A model generated the notes under the pieces. That model was not told the DNA's origin. It searched no databases and saw only the letters and a program-made list of their open reading frames with translations. Position numbers and translations under genes: made by a program. Shown piece by piece: positions 803 through 26,971 of a stretch of 64,000 bases of DNA (positions are counted from its first letter, which is position 1; each line of letters opens with the position of its first letter). The DNA comes from an uncultured Candidatus Saccharibacteria bacterium (GTDB lineage Bacteria; Patescibacteriota; Saccharimonadia; Saccharimonadales; Saccharimonadaceae): positions 73,714 through 137,713 of the forward strand of contig CAKVAO010000002.1 of the NCBI GenBank assembly GCA_934725355.1, given 5' to 3'.

Positions 803-887
803 TGGTGCGCGAGAGAGGACTTGAACCTCCACGCCCGAAGGCATATGCTCCTAAGGCATACGTGTATACCAATTTCACCACTCGCGC
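803..887 (-). tRNA. tRNA-Leu (anticodon UAG), long variable arm, CCA encoded
   Basis: Reverse complement folds by hand as GCGCGAG/TG/GTG-AAATTGGTATA-CAC/G/TATGC-CTTAGGA-GCATA/TGCCTTCGGGCGT/GGAGG-TTCAAGT-CCTCT/CTCGCGC-A-CCA. Confidence 0.9.
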
Positions 888-984: not shown

Positions 985-3900
985 TTAATTAGCACTAATG
1001 CTAAAGAACCGGCTAAAGAAGTCGCATAGCTTTTGGTATACACGCCGACGCAACTTCTGGCGTTCACCATTAGGGCTAAATATATCCGTTGGTGGCAGAA
1101 TGCTATCAAATTGCATACCAGTTTCACTGACTTCACCCTCTGAAAAGGCGTCGTGCATTAGGCGATAGGTTTTGTCGTGATCTAGGCGTTCGTCGCTGAT
1201 AATCTGATCTAGCTCACGCGATTTGGCACTGTTGATGAATTCTTGCCAGCTACGATAGATATCACCAGTATCGCCGTTTAAGCTGGCGATAAAGCTTTCG
1301 ATTAGGTCGCGCTTGTTGTGTAGCTCCAAGCTTGATTCAATGGCGCGGTCAATGTTAATCTTGATGTCCTTGTCTTGTTGATTGCTCTCGTGGTACTTCT
1401 CGATCAGAGCCAGTATATAGTCGATGTTAATATCAAACGACTTCACTAGTTCCATCTCGAACACTACATCATCGGCGATGTTGACTCTATCGGGAGTCTT
1501 TTGGTCATGGAGTTCGCGGTAGATTTCAATATAGCGACTTCGCTGGTCTTGTAGTTCGCGTGGACTTAGAGCATCAGCGGATTGAAAGTCATCAAATGCC
1601 GTCAGGATATTGCGCGCGCGCAGAATGTTGCCAAACAATTTTACAAAGGCGATCTTCTCTTGCTCGCTAGCTATAAGGCTATCGCCCAACGGATATTTAT
1701 CGCATAGTTCGGCAATCAGCTCGTTATAGCCTTTCTGGTGGTGACCGTGCTTGTCAGTATAACCATCCATGTAATCCTTGAACGAACGCAATAGTACAAT
1801 GCCACTGGCGTCCTTGTCGCCGAATAGCGACAGTGCGTCCTTGGTTGCCTGCTCTAGATTGCGGAAGGATACGATATTGCCGTAAGTCTTGATAGAGTTC
1901 AAAATGCGATTAGTGCGGCTGAAGGCCTGAATTAGTCCGTGCATGCGCAGGTTTTTGTCGACCCACAGCGTATTCAAGGTAGTTGCGTCAAAGCCTGTCA
2001 GGAACATATCCACTACGATTAGCATATCTAGCTCGCGGTTCTTCATGCGCAGGCTAATATCTTTATAATAATTTTGAAACTTGTCTGACGAGGTGTCATA
2101 GGATGTGTTAAACATCTGATTATAGTCCCGAATTGCACTCTCTAGGAAGTCGCGGTCGCTCTGGTTTAGTCCGTCAGTGCTGTCGCTATTCTCGTCTGCT
2201 GTCATGCCGTTTTGCGCATCGCTAGGATCATCGGCATTAGGCGCATAACTGTAAATCAGCCCGATTTTTAGCCTTTGTGCTTCAGGTAGGTTGGCCTGCT
2301 GGCGCTTAAACTCATCGTAATATAGCTTTGCTGCGGTTAGTGAGCTGGTGGCGAATAGCGAATTAAAGCCATTTAGGTGCGTTGTCTGCTTTTTCTCGTT
2401 CGCCTTGCCGCGCCCTGCTCGTGCGACGTCGCTGATATTTACGAGTCTATTGAATTCGTAGGTGCCGATGTTGCGTTTAGTCTTGACGTCAAAATTGCCC
2501 AGGATATATTGCACAATAGCGCTGATTCGTTGAGGTGCTAGCATTGCCGACTCTTTGTCAATACCGGGAACCTGTTTGTCTTCGATGTTGCTAGCGATGC
2601 GCGCTTGACCGACATAATCAAATTTGAATGGCAAGACGTTCTTGTCACGAATGGCGTCGACGATAGTATAGGTGTGTAGGCGGCGACCAAAGGTCTGCTC
2701 TGTTGTTTTGAAGTTAGGCTGTCCTGCCGTGCTAGCGTTCGCTGCGAATATCGGTGTGCCTGTAAAGCCAAATAGATAATAGTTCTTGAAATGTTTGCGA
2801 ACCATCTGCCCCATGTCACCGAATTGGCTACGGTGGCACTCGTCAAAAATCATCACGACCTCCTTCTGCATCGCGGCGGAGTGCTGATTCTGCTTAATGA
2901 AATTAGACAGCTTTTGAATCGTGGTAATAATCAGTTTTTTGTCGGGCTGGGTGCTCTCTAGCTGGCGCGTTAGGATGCGTGTGCTGCTGTTGCTATTCGC
3001 GGCGCCCTTCTGAAAGCGGTCGTATTCCTTCATTGTCTGGTAATCTAGATCCTTGCGGTCAACCACAAACAAAACTTTGTCGATATAGTCTAGCTGACAT
3101 GCTAACTGCGAAGTTTTAAAACTAGTCAGGGTCTTGCCAGAGCCAGTGGTGTGCCAGATATAGCCGCCGGCTTCGATTGTGCCTGCCCTCTTATAATTAT
3201 GTGCGATCTCGATTTGGTTGATAATTCTCTCAGTTGCCACGATCTGATACGGCCGCATAACCATCAGGGTCTTGTCATAGGTGAATACGCAATAACGCGT
3301 CAGTATATTCAGAATGGTATGCTTAGCAAAGAACGTGCGTGTGAAGTCCATTAAATCGGTAATTGGACGGTTCTTGGCGTCCGCCCACCAACAGGTAAAC
3401 TCATAGCTATTGCTAGTCTTTTTGCCCGGCTTGCTGCTATTGGTTTTATTCTCGCTAATGTGGCGGTTGCGTGTGGTGTTGCTATAGTACTTTGTATAGG
3501 TGCCGTTACTGATGACAAAAATTTGTACGTATTCAAATAGACCGCTATCCGACCAGAAGCTGTCGCGCTGGTAGCGGTTGATTTGATTAAAGGCTTCCTT
3601 AATGTCTACGCCACGACGCTTTAGCTCGACATGCACCATCGGTAGACCGTTGACTAGGATAGTTACGTCATAGCGGTTGTTGTAGTTGCCGTTTGGTGCT
3701 TTGTATTGGTGGATGACCTGCAAGTTATTGTTGTGGATATGCTGTTTGTCTAGCAGGCGGATGTTCTTTAGCTCGCCGTTATCTAGCTGGAAGCTAATGG
3801 CAGTGTCGGCACGTTGTAGTTTCTCGGTTTTCTCGACGATACCTTCATTACGATTGGCAATACTGTTGTCGTAGAACCTGTGCCACTCATTGTCGTTAAA

Positions 3901-4122
3901 TGTAATATTGTTTAGGGTTTCTAGCTGTGTTCGCAGGTTGGTGATTAGCTCAGCTTCGGTCGTGATGTTTGGTCGCCCATAGCACTGCTTTGTTAGCTGA
4001 TCCATAAAAGCTCGTTCTAGCATCTCTTCGCTTTGGTAGGCCACGCTCTGCTCTGCAACGTGTTCGTATTGCGCCACTACTGTAGACTGGTCTGACTCTA
4101 CCACCGTCCTGTATTCGTTCAT
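985..4122 (-). CDS. hsdR: Type I restriction enzyme R subunit (HsdR)
   Basis: 1045 aa from MNEYRTVV. Helicase motif I is HTTGSGKT and motif II is FDECHRS, with a typical HsdR N-terminal nuclease region. The 45 extra N-terminal codons in the ORF track read through the 121-bp repeat, so the start is placed at ATG 4122. Confidence 0.9.
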   Translation of the reverse strand: MNEYRTVVESDQSTVVAQYEHVAEQSVAYQSEEMLERAFMDQLTKQCYGRPNITTEAELITNLRTQLETLNNITFNDNEWHRFYDNSIANRNEGIVEKTEKLQRADTAISFQLDNGELKNIRLLDKQHIHNNNLQVIHQYKAPNGNYNNRYDVTILVNGLPMVHVELKRRGVDIKEAFNQINRYQRDSFWSDSGLFEYVQIFVISNGTYTKYYSNTTRNRHISENKTNSSKPGKKTSNSYEFTCWWADAKNRPITDLMDFTRTFFAKHTILNILTRYCVFTYDKTLMVMRPYQIVATERIINQIEIAHNYKRAGTIEAGGYIWHTTGSGKTLTSFKTSQLACQLDYIDKVLFVVDRKDLDYQTMKEYDRFQKGAANSNSSTRILTRQLESTQPDKKLIITTIQKLSNFIKQNQHSAAMQKEVVMIFDECHRSQFGDMGQMVRKHFKNYYLFGFTGTPIFAANASTAGQPNFKTTEQTFGRRLHTYTIVDAIRDKNVLPFKFDYVGQARIASNIEDKQVPGIDKESAMLAPQRISAIVQYILGNFDVKTKRNIGTYEFNRLVNISDVARAGRGKANEKKQTTHLNGFNSLFATSSLTAAKLYYDEFKRQQANLPEAQRLKIGLIYSYAPNADDPSDAQNGMTADENSDSTDGLNQSDRDFLESAIRDYNQMFNTSYDTSSDKFQNYYKDISLRMKNRELDMLIVVDMFLTGFDATTLNTLWVDKNLRMHGLIQAFSRTNRILNSIKTYGNIVSFRNLEQATKDALSLFGDKDASGIVLLRSFKDYMDGYTDKHGHHQKGYNELIAELCDKYPLGDSLIASEQEKIAFVKLFGNILRARNILTAFDDFQSADALSPRELQDQRSRYIEIYRELHDQKTPDRVNIADDVVFEMELVKSFDINIDYILALIEKYHESNQQDKDIKINIDRAIESSLELHNKRDLIESFIASLNGDTGDIYRSWQEFINSAKSRELDQIISDERLDHDKTYRLMHDAFSEGEVSETGMQFDSILPPTDIFSPNGERQKLRRRVYQKLCDFFSRFFSISAN

Positions 4123-4128
4123 GGCTAT

Positions 4129-4134
4129 ATTATA
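4129..4134 (-). promoter_or_regulatory. putative -10 (TATAAT) 6 nt upstream of hsdR ATG, no SD (leaderless-type)
   Basis: Minus strand reads ttgttaTATAATatagccATG. Confidence 0.4.
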
Positions 4135-4148
4135 TAACAAAGATAACC

Positions 4149-4269
4149 AAAGTCCCTTCTTGGTAAAGGGGCAGATTTGGCGCACGATATTGGATGCCGC
4201 CCAACTAAAGCCCCTTCTTGGTAAGAAGGGGCAGATGAAATTACGTAGTAATTTCAATCGGGGTTATTG
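4149..4269. repeat. 121-bp direct repeat, copy A (between DUF559 gene and hsdR)
   Basis: Identical to 4793-4913 except 2 mismatches (t/c at 4153/4797, t/c at 4206/4850). Contains hairpins 4152-4172 and 4210-4232 and the inverted repeat GAAATTAC-gta-GTAATTTC (4237-4255). Confidence 0.95.
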
Positions 4270-4622
4270 ATAGACTGATATTCAAGTAGTCTATATAGAT
4301 ATCGACACACGCCATCAAAATTATTCATTAATTCATTATTGGGTATTCTCAGGACTTTAACGCCATATGCAGACAATTCCTTTGTACGGTTAGCGTCATA
4401 CGCCATACCGTGATCCATATAGTGCTGCGAGCCGTCCAACTCTACAACTAGATGTAGCTTAGGACAATAAAAGTCCACGATGTATTTACCCATCGGCTTT
4501 TGCCGATACCAATGTACGGGGAATTTTAGCAGGCAGTCATACCACAAATGTCGCTCTTCCCTTGTCATGTTGCGACGAAGCTCCTTGGCGCGCGCCATGT
4601 TTGACGTATTGTGCATACGCAT
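4254..4622 (-). CDS. DUF559 (PF04480-type) endonuclease-domain protein
   Basis: The sequence AKELRRNMTREERHLWYDCL...WYRQKPMGKYIVDFYCPKLHLVVELDGSQH...RTKELSAYGVKVLRIPNNEL matches the DUF559/Vsr-like PD-(D/E)xK pattern as I remember it. The last 5 codons and the stop lie inside repeat copy A. Confidence 0.8.
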   Translation of the reverse strand: MRMHNTSNMARAKELRRNMTREERHLWYDCLLKFPVHWYRQKPMGKYIVDFYCPKLHLVVELDGSQHYMDHGMAYDANRTKELSAYGVKVLRIPNNELMNNFDGVCRYLYRLLEYQSINNPD

Positions 4623-4628
4623 ATATTT

Positions 4629-4637
4629 ATTTTAGCA
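4629..4637 (-). promoter_or_regulatory. extended -10 (TGcTAAAAT) 6 nt upstream of DUF559 ATG
   Basis: Minus strand reads aaaTGcTAAAATaaatatATGcgt. No SD is present. Confidence 0.5.
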
Positions 4638-4665
4638 TTTTACAATGTTCCCGGCATTGGCTGAG

Positions 4666-4782
4666 CCTCCCTTTGGTAAAGGGAGGTGCCGAGCGTTAGC
4701 GAGGCGGAGAGATTGTATTTTAGCACACAATATCCCCAGCGTGGCTGACGCCACTGCTTGCCCCTTTTTACCAAAAAGGGGC
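4666..4782. repeat. hairpin-rich spacer inside the cassette
   Basis: CCTCCCTTT-ggt-AAAGGGAGG (4666-4686), GTGGC-tgac-GCCAC (4741-4754) and GCCCCTTTTT-acc-AAAAAGGGGC (4760-4782). These belong to the same CCCCTT..GGTA..AAGGGG family as the hairpins in the 121-bp repeats. Confidence 0.85.
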
Positions 4783-4792
4783 CAAAGTCACT

Positions 4793-4913
4793 AAAGCCCC
4801 TTCTTGGTAAAGGGGCAGATTTGGCGCACGATATTGGATGCCGCCCAACCAAAGCCCCTTCTTGGTAAGAAGGGGCAGATGAAATTACGTAGTAATTTCA
4901 ATCGGGGTTATTG
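4793..4913. repeat. 121-bp direct repeat, copy B (overlaps 3' end of hsdS)
   Basis: See copy A. Contains hairpins 4796-4816 and 4854-4876 and the inverted repeat 4881-4899. The last codon and stop of hsdS (CAA TAA, 4913-4908) are the first 6 nt of the repeat. Confidence 0.95.
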
Positions 4914-5527
4914 TACCTTCTCTTTAAACGTCAACAGCTTATCGCGATAGTATTCGTATTGCTTTTGTCGAAGCGCTATCTCGGCAGGCAAGCCGTCGGT
5001 CAGGCTGGTTGTCATGGCGCTGAATTTGTCTAAGATGTTTTTTATGCGGTGCTGTTCAGATAGAGACGGTATGCAAATTTTGACCTTCTTTAGCCTATTC
5101 TTAGATACGTTAAATCTAGTCACGCCCATAGCAGTTTTTCTTAGCTGACGACGTAGAGTTCTACTGCGAAAAACGTATTTCACGAACCCTGGATCTATAT
5201 CGTTTAGGTTGTTAAACCTGTAGCCTACACTAAAGCTATTTAGATAAATATCATCACCTAAGTTGCTGTCAACGACTGAAGAATATGCAACCTCATCAGG
5301 CGTCTCTGACGATCCCGTAAATAATACATCGCCATAAATTACGCGCCTCTGTTTTTCATTGGCACCTATTGTTACGGGCTCGATGCAATCACTGTTAACT
5401 GCTAAGTTATTAAAGATACCGCTGTATGAAACGTACTTAGCGTTGCCGTATTTGCCGAAGTCCTCTTTGCACTTACCGGATAGACCGCCATAGAGCTGCC
5501 CAATGTCACCGAGGGTGAGAACACTCG

Positions 5528-5535
5528 CCCCCCCC
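5528..5535 (-). repeat. homopolymer G8 (C8 on plus strand) inside hsdS
   Basis: Direct count in ctcgCCCCCCCCtggt. Confidence 0.95.
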
Positions 5536-5616
5536 TGGTAACGACTTTAAGTAATCAAAAGATAATAGCTGGTCGCGGTAATATTCATACTGCTGCTTGC
5601 GCAAGTCCAACTCTGT

Positions 5617-5652
5617 CTGCAAAGCAGTCTGCAAAGCAGTCTGCAAAGCAGT
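5617..5652 (-). repeat. 3 x 12-bp perfect tandem repeat (CTGCAAAGCAGT) encoding (TALQ)3 in the HsdS central conserved region
   Basis: Direct reading of 5617-5652. The translation shows TALQTALQTALQ. Confidence 0.95.
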
Positions 5653-6148
5653 AAACTTGTCTAGTATGTCTACGATCTCCTGTTGGACAGGTAGTGGTGG
5701 CACGGGAATTTCAAAATCTTCTGTCACGCTCAATGAAATTTGCGGCATTGAACCCATTCCCGATGCTTCATCTCTAAACTTCTGAGTATTATTCTGTAAA
5801 ACATAACATAAATACTGCACACTTACGGTGTTTTCATGTGTATAAGCCCACATTTCATTCTTGAATGTAAAAGGTTTATCGCAATACACGAAATCAATGA
5901 CACCTCTTGACTGTACAAGCACAGCAGGAACCCTTGTAATATTGGCTTTAGGAATATCCTTTTCAAAAGCATTTATCACAGTTTTCCCACCAGCAAAAAT
6001 TCGAACATCGCCATTTTCATCAGCAATTTCTTTCATTTTACTCGCGGTGATTGGTGTACCCCGTAAACGAGTATATACACCACTAATTTTCTTGTATTCC
6101 ACCCCATCGGGACAAAGTTGATTGATTAAATCACCAATCTTACTCATG

Positions 6149-7702
6149 CTAAACCTCCAGATCCGCAACGATGGCGTCAATTTGGTTGCGCAGTGTTGCC
6201 TCACGGGCGACAATATCGCTCAGCTGTTGGTTTAGGTCGTCGATATTGATCTTCTCGCGCGTGTCACGCTTCTCGACATAGCTACTGACTGCCATATTAT
6301 AGTCATTCGCAGCGATGTCGCTATTGCCAACTAGCTTTGCCTCGTAGTCTAGATTGGCGCGCTTGTCATGTACATTCATGATATAGGTAATGTTATCGTC
6401 GCTCAGCTGGTTCTTGTTGCCTACGTGGACAAACTGCTGACTAGCATCAATGAACAGCACACTGTTATCAGACTTGCTCTTCTTTAGCACCATTATACAT
6501 GTTGCAATCGACGTGCCAAAGAATAGGTTGTCAGGCAGCTGAATCACACAATCGACATAATTATTGTCGACTAAGTATTTGCGAATCTTTGCCTCGGCGC
6601 CTCCGCGATACAATACACCCGGAAATTCAACAATCGCCGCTGTACTATCGGTCTTTAACCACGATAGAATGTGCATGGTAAATGCCAAGTCGGCTTTGGA
6701 TTTTGGTGCCAGCACGCCAGCTGGGCTGAAACGTGGGTCGTTAATCAGGACTGGATTAGAATCGCCTGCCCATTTGATACTGTACGGCGGATTAGAAACG
6801 ATGGCGTCAAAGGGTTCGTCATCCCAGTGGCGTGGCTCGATTAAAGTGTCTCCACGGGCAATATCGAACTTTTCGAAGTTGATGTTATGCAGGAACATAT
6901 TGTAACGCGCTAGGTTATACGTAGTCGGGTTGATCTCTTGACCATAGAAGCCATTTGACACATTGTCTTTGCCGAGGATCTTGGCGAACTTTAATAGCAG
7001 TGAGCCTGAACCACAGGCGGGGTCGTAGACCTTGGCTAGACGTTGCCGCCCAGCAATGGCGAGTTTAGCCAAGAGTTCACTGACTTCCTGCGGCGTGAAG
7101 AATTCACCACCGCTCTTGCCGGCGTTGCTGGCATACATGTTGATTAGGAATTCATAGGCGTCGCCAAAGGCATCGATTTGGTTGTCGCTGTAATCGCCCA
7201 ATGGCAAATCGCCAACGGTATTAAGGATTTTTACTAGACGCTGATTGCGCTCGACCACGCTACCACCTAGGCGGTTGCTGTTGACGTCGATGTCGTCAAA
7301 CAATCCCTTGAAGTCATCCTCGCTCTTACTGCCCTTAGCTGAGCCTTCGATGTCTTTGAAAATCTTGGTAATCGTAATATTCAGGTCGGGGTCTTTGGCT
7401 GCCCTGCGGCGAACATTTACAAAAAGATTGCTAGGCAAGATAAAGAAGCCTTTGGTCTCGATGGCTACCTGGCGACCACGCTCGGCAATGTCGTCAGATA
7501 GGTTACTATAATCAAAATCGGTCTTATCTGCCTCAGCTTGGCGTGCGTTAAAATAGCTGGTGATGTTTTCAGAGATGAAACGATAAAACAAAAAGCCCAG
7601 CATGTATTGTTTGAAATCCCAACCGTCTACGGCGCCACGTAATTCATTTGCGGCGCGCCAGATAGTCTTGTGTAATTCAGTGCGTTGCTCGTTACCACTC
7701 AT
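6149..7702 (-). CDS. hsdM: Type I R-M N6-adenine DNA methyltransferase (HsdM)
   Basis: AdoMet motif is VYDPACGSGSLL and the catalytic motif is VSNPPYSIKW, with an HsdM N-terminal domain. Start is placed at the third codon of the track ORF (MSGNEQ, ATG 7702), because an extended -10 lies exactly 6 nt upstream. ATG 7708 is the alternative. Confidence 0.9.
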   Translation of the reverse strand: MSGNEQRTELHKTIWRAANELRGAVDGWDFKQYMLGFLFYRFISENITSYFNARQAEADKTDFDYSNLSDDIAERGRQVAIETKGFFILPSNLFVNVRRRAAKDPDLNITITKIFKDIEGSAKGSKSEDDFKGLFDDIDVNSNRLGGSVVERNQRLVKILNTVGDLPLGDYSDNQIDAFGDAYEFLINMYASNAGKSGGEFFTPQEVSELLAKLAIAGRQRLAKVYDPACGSGSLLLKFAKILGKDNVSNGFYGQEINPTTYNLARYNMFLHNINFEKFDIARGDTLIEPRHWDDEPFDAIVSNPPYSIKWAGDSNPVLINDPRFSPAGVLAPKSKADLAFTMHILSWLKTDSTAAIVEFPGVLYRGGAEAKIRKYLVDNNYVDCVIQLPDNLFFGTSIATCIMVLKKSKSDNSVLFIDASQQFVHVGNKNQLSDDNITYIMNVHDKRANLDYEAKLVGNSDIAANDYNMAVSSYVEKRDTREKINIDDLNQQLSDIVAREATLRNQIDAIVADLEV

Positions 7703-7708
7703 GCTCAT

Positions 7709-7815: not shown

Positions 7816-10557
7816 ATGGCAAAAAGGACTGAGTCAAGTGACTTATCAGAGGGCGGTCGCAAGTATACCACCTACTCTAACCTAGCGCGTGACAGGGGTA
7901 AAAGTCGGCGTGAGCTAAAGAAAGAGCATAAGGCTCGTGCTAAGGCGGAGTATTTGGCAACTCTGCCAAAGAATCCTGTGAAGCGCTTCTTTGCTCGACT
8001 TCATCCGAAACGCGTTTTTAAGTATTGGTTCAGCATGGATGGGCTAAAAATGCTCGGCAAAATATTCGGCATTCTATTGGTTGTCATGCTGATTGTAGTT
8101 GTTGTTGCTTATCTATATTTCCGCAATGAACTAAAATCACTAGAGCCGTCCGAGCTAAATAAACGCGTACAAACAACCGTTACTAAATACTACGATCGTA
8201 ATGGCGAGTTGCTATGGGAAGATACTGGCTCGGGTGAGTATCGTTTGGTGGTCGACTCGAATGGTATCAGCAAGTATATGAAGGATGCGACTGTCGCTAT
8301 CGAGGATAAGTATTTCTATAAGCACGGTGGCGTGTCGTTGACTGGTACAGCACGTGCAGTCTTGAATAACGTATTTGGCAGTGGCGGTACGCAGGGTGGC
8401 TCGACTTTGACGCAGCAGCTGGTAAAACAGGTCTTCTTCGAAGACGAAGCTGGTGACCGTGGCATTAGTGGTATCCCGCGCAAGATTAAGGAGGCTATCC
8501 TGTCGGTAGAGGCAGAGCGAATCTACACTAAGGATCAGATTTTGACTATGTACCTAAATGAGTCGCCGTATGGTGGACGTCGTAATGGTGTAGAGTCGGC
8601 TAGCCAAACATATTTTGGCAAGTCAGCAAAGGACTTAACGATTGACGAAGCAGCGCTACTAGCGTCGATTCCGCAGTCGCCGACCTACTATAACCCATAT
8701 AATACTGATGGTAATGATGCTCTAGTTGGTCGCCAACACACTGTTATCGACTATATGGCTGAACAAGGTATGATTACCAAGGATGAGGCTAATTCAGCTA
8801 AAGCGGTCTCGACATTGGACAAGATTAAGCCGCAGACCCAGCAGATGGAAGGAGCTAAAGCACCCCACTTCATTCAGATGGTGAAGAATGAGCTAACGAA
8901 TAAATTGGGTGCTAAGGTGATGGGTCAAGGTGGCTTGACTATTAAGACAACACTTGATCTGCGCGTCCAGAACAAGCTAGAAAGCACAATGAATGAACTG
9001 TTTAACGGTAAGTACAAGTATCTGCAGAAGCGCTTTGGCTTTGATAACTCATCAATGACGTTGATGGATAGTCAAACTGGTCAAATCCTAGGTTTGCAAG
9101 GTAGCCGTGACTATAACTATCCTGGCTATGGCGCTGTTAACAGCGCAACATCGTTCATTCAGCCGGGTTCGTCGATTAAGCCGCTGGTTTATGCGTCGTT
9201 GATTAATAACCAGAATAACGAGAATGGCACCTATGGTGCAGGATCAATCATTCCTGATACACCGATTCCGCAGAATATTTACCGTACGACTGATGGTAAC
9301 TCGGTGAAGAACGCTGATGGTAAGTTCAAGGGCGACATTCCGATTCGTAAATCACTGGGTGGTTCACGTAACGTTCCGGCAATTAAGGCGATGGCGCTGA
9401 ATGGCGTGCAGACGACTTGGGATACTATCCATGCTGCAGGTGATGCCAGCTACTGTACAGATGGTGCAGATAAAAACTCTGGTCTAGCTTCGGCTATTGG
9501 TGGTTGTGGTGCTAAGCAGGTTGAGCATGCGAATGCCTTTGCTACATTGGCGCGTGGTGGCGTATACAAGCCATATACAACTCTAATCGAGGTGACCAAC
9601 AGCCAGAAAGAAAAGTTGTACGATTATAATACTGAATACGCAAAGTCCGAGAATCACAAGCAGGTTATTGACCCGCAAACATCGTACATCATCAGTGATA
9701 TTCTAAGTGATGACAACGCACGTAAGGATACCTTTGGCTGGCGTCCGACTGGCTTCTACTATCCGAATATCAAGACAGCTACTAAGACTGGTACGACTAA
9801 CATCGGCACTAAATCTAAGGACCTATGGATGATGAGCTATACACCTAAAGCAGTGTTCTCTATCTGGGCTGGTAACCACACCCCTGCTGCTCTAAACGGT
9901 GCGGCTGATGGTATGTCGTTGGGTCCGGTAACGGCTGATATTACTAAGGCGGTCTATGCAATATTCAAGCAAGATGGCACTTATCATGATAACGATTGGT
10001 TCCAACGTCCTAATGGCATTCAGGAGCTAAAGATTAATAACGCTAAGGATCTTTACCCATCTTGGTACAACAAGAATCAGAAGACCACTAAGACTAAGAA
10101 GGTAACCTTCGATAAGGTCACGAAGAAATTAGCTAGTAAATGTACGCCTGATGGCGCCAAGGAAAGCTTGGACGTTACAATAACCACCGATTCGTTAACA
10201 AAGAAGACGAATGAGACTCCGCCAGAAGGCTATAACAACAAAGAGTACGACGACTATCATAAATGTTCGGACTCTGTGCCATTTATCTCAGAGATTACAA
10301 TGACGCAACGTGAATCGGGCGGAGACAAGTATGTGACACTGTCGGTCATTGCTAAGCAAGGTACGTATGCAATTAAGGATGTGACTATGAGTATTAATGG
10401 TAAGAACTACCAAGCTAAGTTAAATGGTGGCTCGTGGGACGTTACACTGAAGCGTGACGATACTAGTAGCTACGCAGTTAAGGCAACCGTAACTGATGAA
10501 GCTTACTATACGGCAACTTATGATCGATCACTGACGGCCGATCAAGATCAAAGTTAG
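7816..10557 (+). CDS. class A penicillin-binding protein (glycosyltransferase GT51 + transpeptidase) with C-terminal extension
   Basis: GT51 motifs are EDKYFYKHGG and GGSTLTQQLVK. Transpeptidase motifs are SSIK (SxxK), SRN and KTGT. There is an N-terminal TM anchor. Confidence 0.9.
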   Translation: MAKRTESSDLSEGGRKYTTYSNLARDRGKSRRELKKEHKARAKAEYLATLPKNPVKRFFARLHPKRVFKYWFSMDGLKMLGKIFGILLVVMLIVVVVAYLYFRNELKSLEPSELNKRVQTTVTKYYDRNGELLWEDTGSGEYRLVVDSNGISKYMKDATVAIEDKYFYKHGGVSLTGTARAVLNNVFGSGGTQGGSTLTQQLVKQVFFEDEAGDRGISGIPRKIKEAILSVEAERIYTKDQILTMYLNESPYGGRRNGVESASQTYFGKSAKDLTIDEAALLASIPQSPTYYNPYNTDGNDALVGRQHTVIDYMAEQGMITKDEANSAKAVSTLDKIKPQTQQMEGAKAPHFIQMVKNELTNKLGAKVMGQGGLTIKTTLDLRVQNKLESTMNELFNGKYKYLQKRFGFDNSSMTLMDSQTGQILGLQGSRDYNYPGYGAVNSATSFIQPGSSIKPLVYASLINNQNNENGTYGAGSIIPDTPIPQNIYRTTDGNSVKNADGKFKGDIPIRKSLGGSRNVPAIKAMALNGVQTTWDTIHAAGDASYCTDGADKNSGLASAIGGCGAKQVEHANAFATLARGGVYKPYTTLIEVTNSQKEKLYDYNTEYAKSENHKQVIDPQTSYIISDILSDDNARKDTFGWRPTGFYYPNIKTATKTGTTNIGTKSKDLWMMSYTPKAVFSIWAGNHTPAALNGAADGMSLGPVTADITKAVYAIFKQDGTYHDNDWFQRPNGIQELKINNAKDLYPSWYNKNQKTTKTKKVTFDKVTKKLASKCTPDGAKESLDVTITTDSLTKKTNETPPEGYNNKEYDDYHKCSDSVPFISEITMTQRESGGDKYVTLSVIAKQGTYAIKDVTMSINGKNYQAKLNGGSWDVTLKRDDTSSYAVKATVTDEAYYTATYDRSLTADQDQS

Positions 10558-24084: not shown

Positions 24085-25461
24085 CTAATGTTTGCGCTTC
24101 TCTAGTGACATGAACTTCAGACGGTCTGGGTGGAAGTACAGCTCGATATTACCAGTTGGACCGTTACGATGTTTGGCGATAATCAAATCAGTGATATGCT
24201 GACGTTCTGTATCGGGGTTATAGTAATCCTCGCGATATAGGAACATCACAATATCAGCATCCTGCTCGATAGAACCGGATTCGCGAAGATCTGACAGCAT
24301 CGGTCGTTTATCAGGGCGCGCTTCGACAGAGCGTGACAGCTGTGATAGTGCTACAACTGGAACATTTAGCTCGCGAGCAATTAGCTTGAGACCGCGGGAG
24401 ATTTCTGACACCTCCTGCACGCGATTGTCGCCATAGTTTTTGCTGCCGCTCATTAGCTGTAAATAGTCGATTACAATCAGCCCTAGCGGTGTCTTGTGAG
24501 CTTGGCGCTGAGCCATGGTTTTCATCTCTAGTACAGTCATGCCTGGCTTATCGCAGAAGAAGATGGGCGCTTCGGCCATCTCACCCATCGCCTCGGAAAT
24601 CTTAGCGAAGTCTTCTTCAGTTAGCTTGCCTGTGCGAATATTCCAGCTGTCGACGCCTGCTGCCTCAGCAATCATGCGGTCGACGGTCTGGTCGTTGCTC
24701 ATCTCGAGGTTAAAGATCAGCACCGCTTTCTTCTCGCGGCTGGCTACGTTATAAGCTAGATTCTGCGCGAAGGTTGACTTACCCATGGCTGGACGAGCAG
24801 CTAGAATAATCAAATCTGACTTTTGTAGACCAGCAGTTAGACGGTCAAGGTCCTTAAATCCAGTGCGAACGCCACGCAGTTGATCTTTATTACGGTGGAG
24901 CATTTCCATGCGGTCGAAGGACTGCGTCAGAATGGATTCTAGTGGTGTTAAATCACCTTTCTGAGACGACTCGCTGACTGCATATAGGTCAGCCTCGGCC
25001 TGTGCTAGTGCCTTTTGTACGTCATCGGCTTGGTCGAACCCTAGTCGCGTAATTTTTGCGCCAGCACCAATTAGGCGACGGCGAACTGCAGCGTTGGCAA
25101 TAATATTAGCGTATTCAACAGCATGGGCTGAGCTAGGCACGATGTTAGTTAGGTCGCCTAGGTACTGTATGCCACCAATCATAGATATACTGCCAGCGTT
25201 TTTTAGTTCGGTACCGAGCGTCAGTATATCTATGGGTGAATGGCGCTCGTATAACTTTAGCATGGTGGCAAAGATTGTAGCGTTGTGCTTGTCGTAAAAG
25301 TCTTCGGCGTGTACTTTGTCGGCAATATCGACCAAGACTTCTTGGTCCATTAAAATAGCGCCCAGTAGCGACTGCTCAGCCTCTATATTTTGCGGTGGCA
25401 CTTTACCAGAGGCATCATTGTAGTTATCTTGGTCTTGATAATCCTGATTAGATCTCGGCAT
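24085..25461 (-). CDS. dnaB: replicative DNA helicase DnaB
   Basis: Walker A is ARPAMGKST, with DYLQLM and a RecA-like C-terminal domain. Start is set at MPRSNQ (ATG 25461), with GGAGAGG 9 nt upstream. It overlaps the dnaX 3' end by 14 nt. Confidence 0.92.
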   Translation of the reverse strand: MPRSNQDYQDQDNYNDASGKVPPQNIEAEQSLLGAILMDQEVLVDIADKVHAEDFYDKHNATIFATMLKLYERHSPIDILTLGTELKNAGSISMIGGIQYLGDLTNIVPSSAHAVEYANIIANAAVRRRLIGAGAKITRLGFDQADDVQKALAQAEADLYAVSESSQKGDLTPLESILTQSFDRMEMLHRNKDQLRGVRTGFKDLDRLTAGLQKSDLIILAARPAMGKSTFAQNLAYNVASREKKAVLIFNLEMSNDQTVDRMIAEAAGVDSWNIRTGKLTEEDFAKISEAMGEMAEAPIFFCDKPGMTVLEMKTMAQRQAHKTPLGLIVIDYLQLMSGSKNYGDNRVQEVSEISRGLKLIARELNVPVVALSQLSRSVEARPDKRPMLSDLRESGSIEQDADIVMFLYREDYYNPDTERQHITDLIIAKHRNGPTGNIELYFHPDRLKFMSLEKRKH

Positions 25462-26971
25462 TTTTAACAACCTCTCCACCGCCCATTAGCTCCATCACTT
25501 TACTGGCATCACTATCAGCCGGTGCAGCATTTTTACTGATTATAATACTTGGCCTAAAATTATATAGCGACTCAATTGCTGCTGTCAACGTATCGCGAAA
25601 ATTGGCAGTATCGGCTTTTTTGCGGTGAAAAGCCTTGCTGAAGAATAATGTCAATTCGTTAGACTGTTTTGAATATCGCATTTCGGCAAATTCTATTAGA
25701 GAGCATGTCGATAATTCGTCCATGTTGGTCAATTTAGCTTTAACGTCGTCGTGCTTAATCTCTCCGTCAAAGTTAGATGGCGGGGCAATTGGGCTAACTA
25801 TTTTGTCGACCTTTTGCGCGGTAGCGGCTGCACTGGTCTTCGTAACCGCCTGCGAATGAGCTCTGGCTGTGTTTGCTGGGGTGTCTGGCTGTGTTGCCTG
25901 AATCGGCTTGATTGGCTCTAGGGGTTCGACCTTTTTATTGGCGACTGACTGAACCACCTTGATGGCTGGTAATTCTACGGTTGCTGTTTTGCTGCCCTGG
26001 CCTTTTAGGCTAGCTTCGACTAGCACAGCAATTAGTTTTTGCTCTGGCATGGCTGACTTAGGCGTGTCTAATAGTTGATTAATTATGACATATAGTTCGG
26101 GCGCATTAATAGATGCCTCGGCTAGGAATGACACAATCTGGTTGACTAGCGATTGTACACTAACTCCATCTGCTAGCATATTTTGGATATCGGTGATGAT
26201 GCCTTTGCTGTCGTGGTCAGCAATCTTCTGAACCAATCCACCAATTTGGTCGCTGGAAATCATTCCCAATACATCTTCTACCGTTGATTTAGTAATCTTG
26301 CTATTGCTGCTCGATAGCTGGTCTAGGATGGTGATGCTGTCGCGTACAGAACCACCGCCGCACTTAGCGACTAGTAGTAGTGCTTGATCATCGATATCAA
26401 TATGCTCTTTGTCGGCAATTGTCCGTAGATGTTTGGCTAGCGGTTCTGGCGCTAACGGTCTAAAATGGTAACGCTGCACACGTGACAAGATTGTTGCAGG
26501 CACTTTCTGTAGCTCTGTGGTCGCCAAGATAAAGATTGCGTGCTCAGGCGGTTCCTCGATGGTCTTTAGTAGCGCATTAAAGGCGGCCTTGCTGAGCATA
26601 TGGAATTCGTCGATGATATATACTTTGTATTTGGACTTCATCGGCGCCAAGTTAATGCTGTCGCGCAGGTTTCGAATGTCGTCTACGCTATTATTGGACG
26701 CCGCATCAATCTCGATAATATCGATGTCGCTACTGTTGATGTTGTCGTTGTAGTCTAGTCCATTGACTAGGTGTGCCAGAATGCGCGCCACAGTAGTTTT
26801 GCCGGTGCCACGTTGCCCAGTAAACAGAAAAGCGTGCGCGAAATTACCTGTTTTCGCCATTGCCGCCAAAATGTCTGTTACCTGTGGCTGCCCAATTACT
26901 TCGTCAAGTTTAGTTGGCCGGTATTTGCGGTACAACGCCAACCGTGTTTCTGTCTTCCCCGTTTTCGTCAT
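25448..26971 (-). CDS. dnaX: DNA polymerase III subunit gamma/tau
   Basis: Walker A is GQRGTGKTT, Walker B is IIDEFHML and sensor 2 is LSRVQRY. Confidence 0.92.
   Translation of the reverse strand: MTKTGKTETRLALYRKYRPTKLDEVIGQPQVTDILAAMAKTGNFAHAFLFTGQRGTGKTTVARILAHLVNGLDYNDNINSSDIDIIEIDAASNNSVDDIRNLRDSINLAPMKSKYKVYIIDEFHMLSKAAFNALLKTIEEPPEHAIFILATTELQKVPATILSRVQRYHFRPLAPEPLAKHLRTIADKEHIDIDDQALLLVAKCGGGSVRDSITILDQLSSSNSKITKSTVEDVLGMISSDQIGGLVQKIADHDSKGIITDIQNMLADGVSVQSLVNQIVSFLAEASINAPELYVIINQLLDTPKSAMPEQKLIAVLVEASLKGQGSKTATVELPAIKVVQSVANKKVEPLEPIKPIQATQPDTPANTARAHSQAVTKTSAAATAQKVDKIVSPIAPPSNFDGEIKHDDVKAKLTNMDELSTCSLIEFAEMRYSKQSNELTLFFSKAFHRKKADTANFRDTLTAAIESLYNFRPSIIISKNAAPADSDASKVMELMGGGEVVKNAEI

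Follow-up and report, generated by a model that had tools for sequence, protein, structure and literature searches.

A poly-G tract between the two halves of hsdS as a probable specificity switch in a Type I restriction-modification locus of an uncultured Saccharibacteria bacterium

When a homopolymer interrupts the specificity gene of a Type I restriction-modification (R-M) system, does it switch the sequence that the system recognizes, does it mark a gene that has been lost, or is it an error of assembly? This question is raised by an hsdM-hsdS-hsdR locus in a stretch of DNA of 64 kb, the whole of which is referred to here as the window. The window is chromosomal, with cysS, dnaB (24088-25479, minus strand, by homologue match), dnaX, trpS, rplA and glycogen-metabolism genes present, and its host is likely a human-gut member of the Saccharibacteria (TM7). 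This assignment is based on DnaB, which occurs in identical form on 29 contigs and whose named homologues, at 68-74% identity, are mostly from 'Candidatus Saccharibacteria'. Many of its ORFs had no NCBIfam match or scored under the cut-offs.

A G8 tract and the two halves of hsdS

The hsdS gene is read from the minus strand, with its ATG start codon (6147-6145) separated by 1 base from the stop codon of hsdM (6151-6149). Direct reading of the sequence located a slippage-prone tract of eight G's on the coding strand (C8 on the plus strand, CCCCCCCC) at 5528-5535, present in an out-of-frame state. The original prediction held that this tract splits hsdS into two half-genes that are rejoined by the loss of one G, and translation confirmed it. 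With G8 the frame ends at a TGA (5508-5506) and yields a 213-aa product, and removal of one G in silico (G7) yields a 412-aa HsdS with two TRDs and the C-terminal end KEKVQ. When the tract was set to G10 in silico a 413-aa HsdS with two TRDs was obtained, and G6 and G9 gave products of 247 aa and 248 aa, respectively. The 5′ part of the gene as read with G8 (5506-6147, minus strand) encodes TRD1 and the central conserved helix D1 in full, followed by 9 residues read out of frame. The 3′ part (4908-5527, minus strand), which matches Methylase_S, encodes TRD2 and the distal conserved helix D2 and is intact and out of frame. The downstream frame is stop-free from 5546 to 4908. The prediction that the gap ahead of the 4908-5183 ORF contains no stop was correct, but the gap orphaned ahead of GTG 5183 comprises ~115 codons and not the ~117 that had been claimed. 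A scan of the downstream frame for ATG, GTG and TTG found none upstream of GTG 5183, and TRD2 is thus not makeable alone.

The G8 tract is the sole G/C run of at least 7 in the window, where GGG is the rarest Gly codon (6.9% of Gly codons). The presence of one such run is not significant, because dinucleotide shuffles of the window had a mean of 0.19 G8 runs and 15 of 100 shuffles had at least one. It is the position of the tract and its counterparts in relatives, not its mere presence, that set it apart from chance.

Pfam Methylase_S was detected in both halves of HsdS (E = 1e-16 and, for the TRD2 half, 2e-14) and spans residues 13-180 of the 213-aa product. The best solved-structure match of the repaired 412-aa HsdS was EcoR124II HsdS (7bst; E = 6e-35, residues 47-408). 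In this alignment the tract sits in the linker between the end of a complete D1 (...YYRDQLLSF) and the first strand of TRD2, which agrees with its predicted location just after the central conserved helix. With a moderate pLDDT of 70, AlphaFold modelled the 213-aa product as a TRD, a continuous helix at residues 152-195 and a disordered tail from residue 200, and the Foldseek matches of this model were Type I S subunits. HsdS has the layout of family IC, with two TRDs, two mutually similar helices (25 of 46 residues are identical between D1 and D2) and, within the central helix, a repeat of four amino acids. Its homopolymer, placed between TRD1-D1 and TRD2, is in frame in one length class and truncates the product in the others.

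A second variable element of hsdS, absent from the original prediction, is a 12-bp tandem repeat at 5617-5652 (minus strand). Tandem Repeats Finder reported 3.2 copies with a 100% match, and the three copies, (ACTGCTTTGCAG)x3, encode (TALQ)x3 within the D1 helix.

The surrounding locus and its alleles in related strains

Both hsdM (6149-7708, minus strand; 519 aa) and hsdR (985-4257, minus strand) are intact, as had been predicted, with their Pfam domains completely covered: HsdM_N and N6_Mtase in the former, and HSDR_N, SWI2_SNF2/ResIII, T1R_D3-like and EcoR124_C in the latter. The longest hsdR ORF starts at TTG 4257 (1090 aa), and from ATG 4122, as called in the relatives L002, L003, L007 and L095, HsdR has 1045 aa. 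On the evidence of EcoR124_C in HsdR (E = 2e-61), the 7bst match and the similarity of D1 to D2, the sequence identifies the system as Type I, family IC.

Between hsdS and hsdR is a DUF559 (Vsr-like) gene (4254-4622, minus strand; Pfam DUF559 E = 1e-29), which is flanked by a direct repeat of 124-132 bp that is 98% identical between its copies (4146-4269 and 4790-4913). This gene is missing from L002, and its product has 97-104 aa in the window, in L007 and in L095, against 205 aa in L008; it was apparently inserted in an event that also duplicated the 3′ region of hsdS. Each copy of the direct repeat contains a terminator-like hairpin, recognized by consensus scan only; one lies directly 3′ of hsdS (4854-4876, minus strand) and its duplicate is at 4210-4232. 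The hairpin after hsdS suggests that hsdM and hsdS form one transcription unit apart from hsdR, and because of this consensus match a polar effect of the premature stop on hsdR is unlikely. Switching of the inverton or shufflon type (SpnIII-like) was considered and rejected, as there is a single hsdS, the duplicated terminator-like hairpins are the only inverted repeats in 3900-6300, and no recombinase-like ORF adjoins the locus. On its hsdR side the R-M locus is followed, 98 nt past the stop codon of hsdR, by a tRNA-Leu(tag) gene (803-887, minus strand), and its other neighbour is a gene for a class A penicillin-binding protein (7816-10557).

The original prediction proposed a comparison of tract length in related genomes. 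As relatives we used contigs that carry hsdM-hsdS-hsdR at the same chromosomal site with flanking genes ~95-96% identical to the window, and from this identity we consider them the same or a sister species. Tracts of G7, G8 and G10 were found at the same site. The window and L003-L005 share TRD1 type A, three TALQ copies, G8 and the 213-aa product. TRD1 type B occurs with two TALQ copies and G7 in L001 (399 aa), with two copies and G10 in L006 (400 aa, with one extra Gly in PGGGA), and with three copies and G8 in L012, which is truncated and has lost the core of TRD2. TRD1 type C was found in L002 and L007-L011, each with two copies, G7 and a 421-aa product. D1 thus contains an in-frame 12-bp repeat whose copy number differs between alleles, as in EcoR124I/II; both G8 alleles have three TALQ copies and all G7 and G10 alleles have two.

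L006 (G10) and L001 (G7) have 0 mismatches over 1,667 nt besides the three G's, and between L012 and L001 there are 2 mismatches, a length difference of one 12-nt repeat unit and of one G, and the internal deletion of the TRD2 core. Since such near-identical alleles differ in them, both simple repeats must change on very short evolutionary timescales. The variation among G7, G8 and G10, together with G7 and G10 contigs that are otherwise identical, supports the original reading of the tract as a switch. In the GTDB species representatives, which as scanned do not include this species, a DNA search with exact flanks and a variable gap had no match; in JGI metagenomes the exact-flank pattern had one match, L012. 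Allele counts were not taken from protein-level searches, which proved unreliable: they did not return the window's own 213-aa product, for which encoding contigs exist, and the L012 half-protein query missed the near-identical P0002 family.

An assembly or sequencing indel had been left as the alternative to a switch. According to this explanation the true tract would be G7, in a normal hsdS of full length, and it draws on homopolymers being a classic source of indel errors and on the single base that restores the frame. The 213-aa product is, however, encoded on at least six further contigs, including Hadza gut NODE_58 (~47x) and contigs of k141 and Logan assemblies. G8 is therefore present in contigs of three pipelines (metaSPAdes-style NODE, k141 and Logan), which match the window with 100.000% identity across as much as 12,147 bp and which represent independent assemblies, though not necessarily independent samples, as samples may overlap. 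A look-up of identical HsdM, which is independent of the state of hsdS, returned G8 contigs only. Additionally, the unrelated allele L012 is also G8, and G8 and G7 alleles differ in repeat number too, so that they are distinct haplotypes. With G8 in three pipelines and in a separate allele, an indel error is effectively excluded.

A half-size HsdS was also reached without the tract. At the corresponding site, L095 (5001-5582) and L096 (2184-2765) each contain a clean in-frame half-hsdS of 193 aa in which TRD1-B is joined to a D1/D2 hybrid helix; judged from this hybrid, recombination between the central and distal conserved regions removed the tract together with TRD2. In both, hsdM is intact, and L095 also has a full-length hsdR of 1045 aa. 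In L012, hsdR is intact across the ~330 codons present in that short locus. There are thus three routes to a TRD1-only subunit (the window, L012 and L095/L096), each with an intact hsdM, and on these sequences a half-size HsdS is tolerated beside an intact hsdM in the same or a sister species.

Slippage, inactivation or recoding

We consider it probable, at roughly 70%, that replication slippage toggles hsdS between a full-length and a half product and that the window genome is in the half state. In this model, a slippage-prone poly-G in the short linker between the D1 coiled-coil helix and TRD2 would change in length by slippage during replication. From G7 or G10 an HsdS with both TRDs would be made, whose target would be bipartite and asymmetric; with G8 (as in the window), G6 or G9, translation would end soon after the complete TRD1-D1 unit. 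Two half-HsdS would pair, as they should be able to because D1 resembles D2 in Type IC systems, and with two HsdM they would form a methyltransferase that recognizes a palindrome of the TRD1 half-site. The outcome would be changed specificity and not plain inactivation, as in NgoAV, EcoR124I(delta50) and EcoDXXI(deltaC). The second mutable element, the TALQ repeat in D1, should set the spacer length through its copy number, a prediction made by analogy with EcoR124I/II.

The closest parallel is NgoAV, a Type IC system of N. gonorrhoeae FA1090 in which hsdS is split by a poly-G so that a 208-aa product is active and the rest is not; with one G fewer the two are fused into 410 aa and the target changes from GCAN8TGC to GCAN7STCA (PMC9577141). 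The original prediction had cited NgoAV for its poly-G, its truncated, dimerising HsdS and its changed target, in agreement with the published account (PMC9577141). NgoAV and the window are alike in their family, in the gene layout around hsdS and in the position of the poly-G, where the TRD1-D1 unit ends. In size, the truncated product (208 aa in NgoAV, 213 aa in the window) and the fused one (410 and 412 aa, respectively) nearly agree; in both systems the halves are joined when one G is lost, and the downstream half is not expressed by itself. D1 also has a variable tetra-amino-acid repeat in both, LEAT in NgoAV and TALQ in the window (PMC9577141, PMC6789123). The two differ in host and in TRDs, and the tract is G7/G6 in NgoAV, taken from its published description, and G8/G7/G10 here. 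Activity, recognition sequences and switching within a culture have been demonstrated for NgoAV.

Other Type IC systems bear on the separate parts of the model. A 12-bp TAEL repeat is present twice in EcoR124I and three times in EcoR124II, and their spacers are accordingly N6 and N7 (PMC3874165). As in the window, this is a 12-bp repeat of four residues in the same helix, with natural alleles of two or three copies; the EcoR124 repeat is TAEL and not TALQ, there is no homopolymer, and the effect on the spacer was measured there and is predicted here. EcoR124I(delta50) and EcoDXXI(deltaC) are homodimers of truncated subunits with the N-terminal TRD, and their targets are the palindromes GAA N7 TTC and TCA N8 TGA, respectively (PMC3874165). 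Their composition, an N-terminal TRD plus D1, is that of the window's 213-aa product, although they were engineered or derived from a transposon and the truncation in the window is natural and potentially reversible. The similarity of D1 to D2 is held to let Type IC half-subunits homodimerise (PMC3874165). By analogy with these systems, we infer that an active, homodimeric half-HsdS with a palindromic target is the most likely state here.

It is unlikely that the G8 frameshift is instead fixed and inactivating, with hsdS a recent pseudogene, the R-M system off without methylation or restriction, and the tract merely the site of the lesion. All contigs of the window's clone, which are consensus assemblies, are G8, the tract is short, and L012 provides an example of TRD2 decay after a G8 frameshift. 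The truncated product nevertheless keeps the whole of TRD1 and D1, the architecture that is active in NgoAV, EcoR124I(delta50) and EcoDXXI(deltaC), and the window, like most other split loci, has an intact hsdM and hsdR. The maintenance of the in-frame 193-aa half-hsdS with an intact hsdM in L095 and L096, and with an intact hsdR in L095, also argues against inactivation, as does purifying selection on TRD2. Compared with in-frame alleles, TRD2 of the window has a dN/dS of 0.16-0.18 at dS = 0.144, indicating that the frameshift is recent or reversible rather than old and that this TRD2, as far as its substitutions reveal, has not been a pseudogene for long. The uniform G8 of the clone does imply that switching is not fast enough to alter the consensus; in the model it would occur within a clone at an appreciable rate.

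An intact TRD2 under purifying selection would also be expected if the G8 template gave some full-length HsdS by a +1 ribosomal shift or by transcriptional slippage, with half and full subunits coexisting, and GGG GGG GG would let tRNA-Gly re-pair in the +1 frame. We regard such recoding as highly improbable: no observation here requires it, reversible slippage of the DNA accounts equally well for the conservation of TRD2, and NgoAV works without recoding (PMC9577141).

The junction tract across phyla and its meaning

In a survey of REBASE, 7.8% of hsdS genes had a repeat tract, which in every case lay between the two TRDs, and NgoAV was named as the only case of a repeat-tract hsdS that had been tested experimentally (PMC7383803). 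In that survey, by Atack et al. (2020), mononucleotide tracts were counted as phase-variable from a length of at least 9 (PMC7383803), and a G7/G8 locus would go uncounted at this threshold; the host is also unlikely to have been covered, since it is known only from metagenome assemblies. The hsdS of Salmonella enterica serovar India, with G[12], resembles that of the window in having a G tract between TRD1 and TRD2, and its alleles share TRD2 and differ in TRD1, the same pattern as TRD1 types A, B and C here. Our literature search found no account of repeat-driven hsdS switching in the Saccharibacteria phylum.

We surveyed 80 loci of GTDB species representatives from about ten phyla, chosen as those whose HsdM is closest to that of the window (67-77% identity), and located the D1/TRD2 junction in 59 of them, taking as the junction window the 75 nt after the central QYxYYR motif, or 4.4 kb in total over the 59 loci. 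Ten of 59 junctions carry G7-G11 on the coding strand and four carry C7-C8; in the others the longest G run is 1-5, and in none is it exactly 6. Of 26 G/C runs of at least 7 in 898 kb, 14 fall in junction windows, where 0.13 are expected (binomial P = 5e-26). Eight of the 14 junction runs are out of frame, five of them poly-G (L017, L019 with G9, L024, L028 and L068) and three poly-C (L015, L034 and L065). In seven of these eight out-of-frame loci hsdR is uninterrupted, at full length in four and to the end of the available sequence in three. The poly-C runs (C7-C8, Pro-Pro) are located at 9060 in L015, 9190 in L023, 10834 in L034 and 9204 in L065, with three of the four out of frame. The nearest HsdM and HsdR among the GTDB loci, at 77% and 67% identity, are from a Saccharibacteria MAG, and hsdR and DUF559 were the only syntenic matches to these loci.

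In the GTDB loci the tetra-amino-acid repeat of D1 has 2, 3, 3 and 3 copies where the poly-G is in frame, 3, 3, 4, 3 and 4 copies where it is out of frame, and commonly 3-4 copies where there is no tract. A link between repeat copy number and frame state is at most suggestive, and we do not claim it.

Two further kinds of repeat were observed in these homologues. In L022 and L024 (Candidatus Enterousia), a C7 or C8 at position 5743, ~258 nt upstream of the hsdM start, is present besides the junction poly-G and could be a second variable tract. Many homologues of ~600 aa (among P0017-P0120) have three TRDs and are comparable to the 'extended hsdS' genes described by Atack et al. (2020). Their second junctions read TDRQTDRQ..., ERERE... 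or GGGG, implying, at the protein level, tetra-, di- or mononucleotide repeats in the DNA.

These observations raise the possibility, which we put forward tentatively and think rather doubtful, that the D1/TRD2 homopolymer (poly-G for Gly-Gly or poly-C for Pro-Pro) and the 12-bp repeat of D1 make up a conserved specificity module with two controls. Such a module would have spread with one Type IC subfamily over about ten phyla, among them Saccharibacteria, Gracilibacteria and Paceibacterota, which are ultrasmall CPR lineages, and would be a main route by which these genomes diversify defence and methylation, with half-HsdS states selected and not merely tolerated. It would explain why one species has three independent routes to a half-HsdS and why three repeat copies are paired with both G8 alleles.

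The locus adds a new member to an already known class of slippage switches, of which NgoAV was the first to be described, and it reveals no new principle. It extends a mechanism for which Neisseria has supplied the only experimental demonstration to lineages not yet open to manipulation, and surveys that demand tracts of at least 9 bases overlook such loci. In methylomes of MAGs of this species, the motif is predicted to be palindromic where the strain has G8 and asymmetric where it has G7 or G10. With its swaps among three types of TRD1, its two or three copies of TALQ, its poly-G of 7, 8 or 10 and deletions of two kinds by which a half-HsdS becomes fixed, the locus offers a natural, population-level view of how one chromosomal Type I system may change its target in an uncultured human-gut bacterium.
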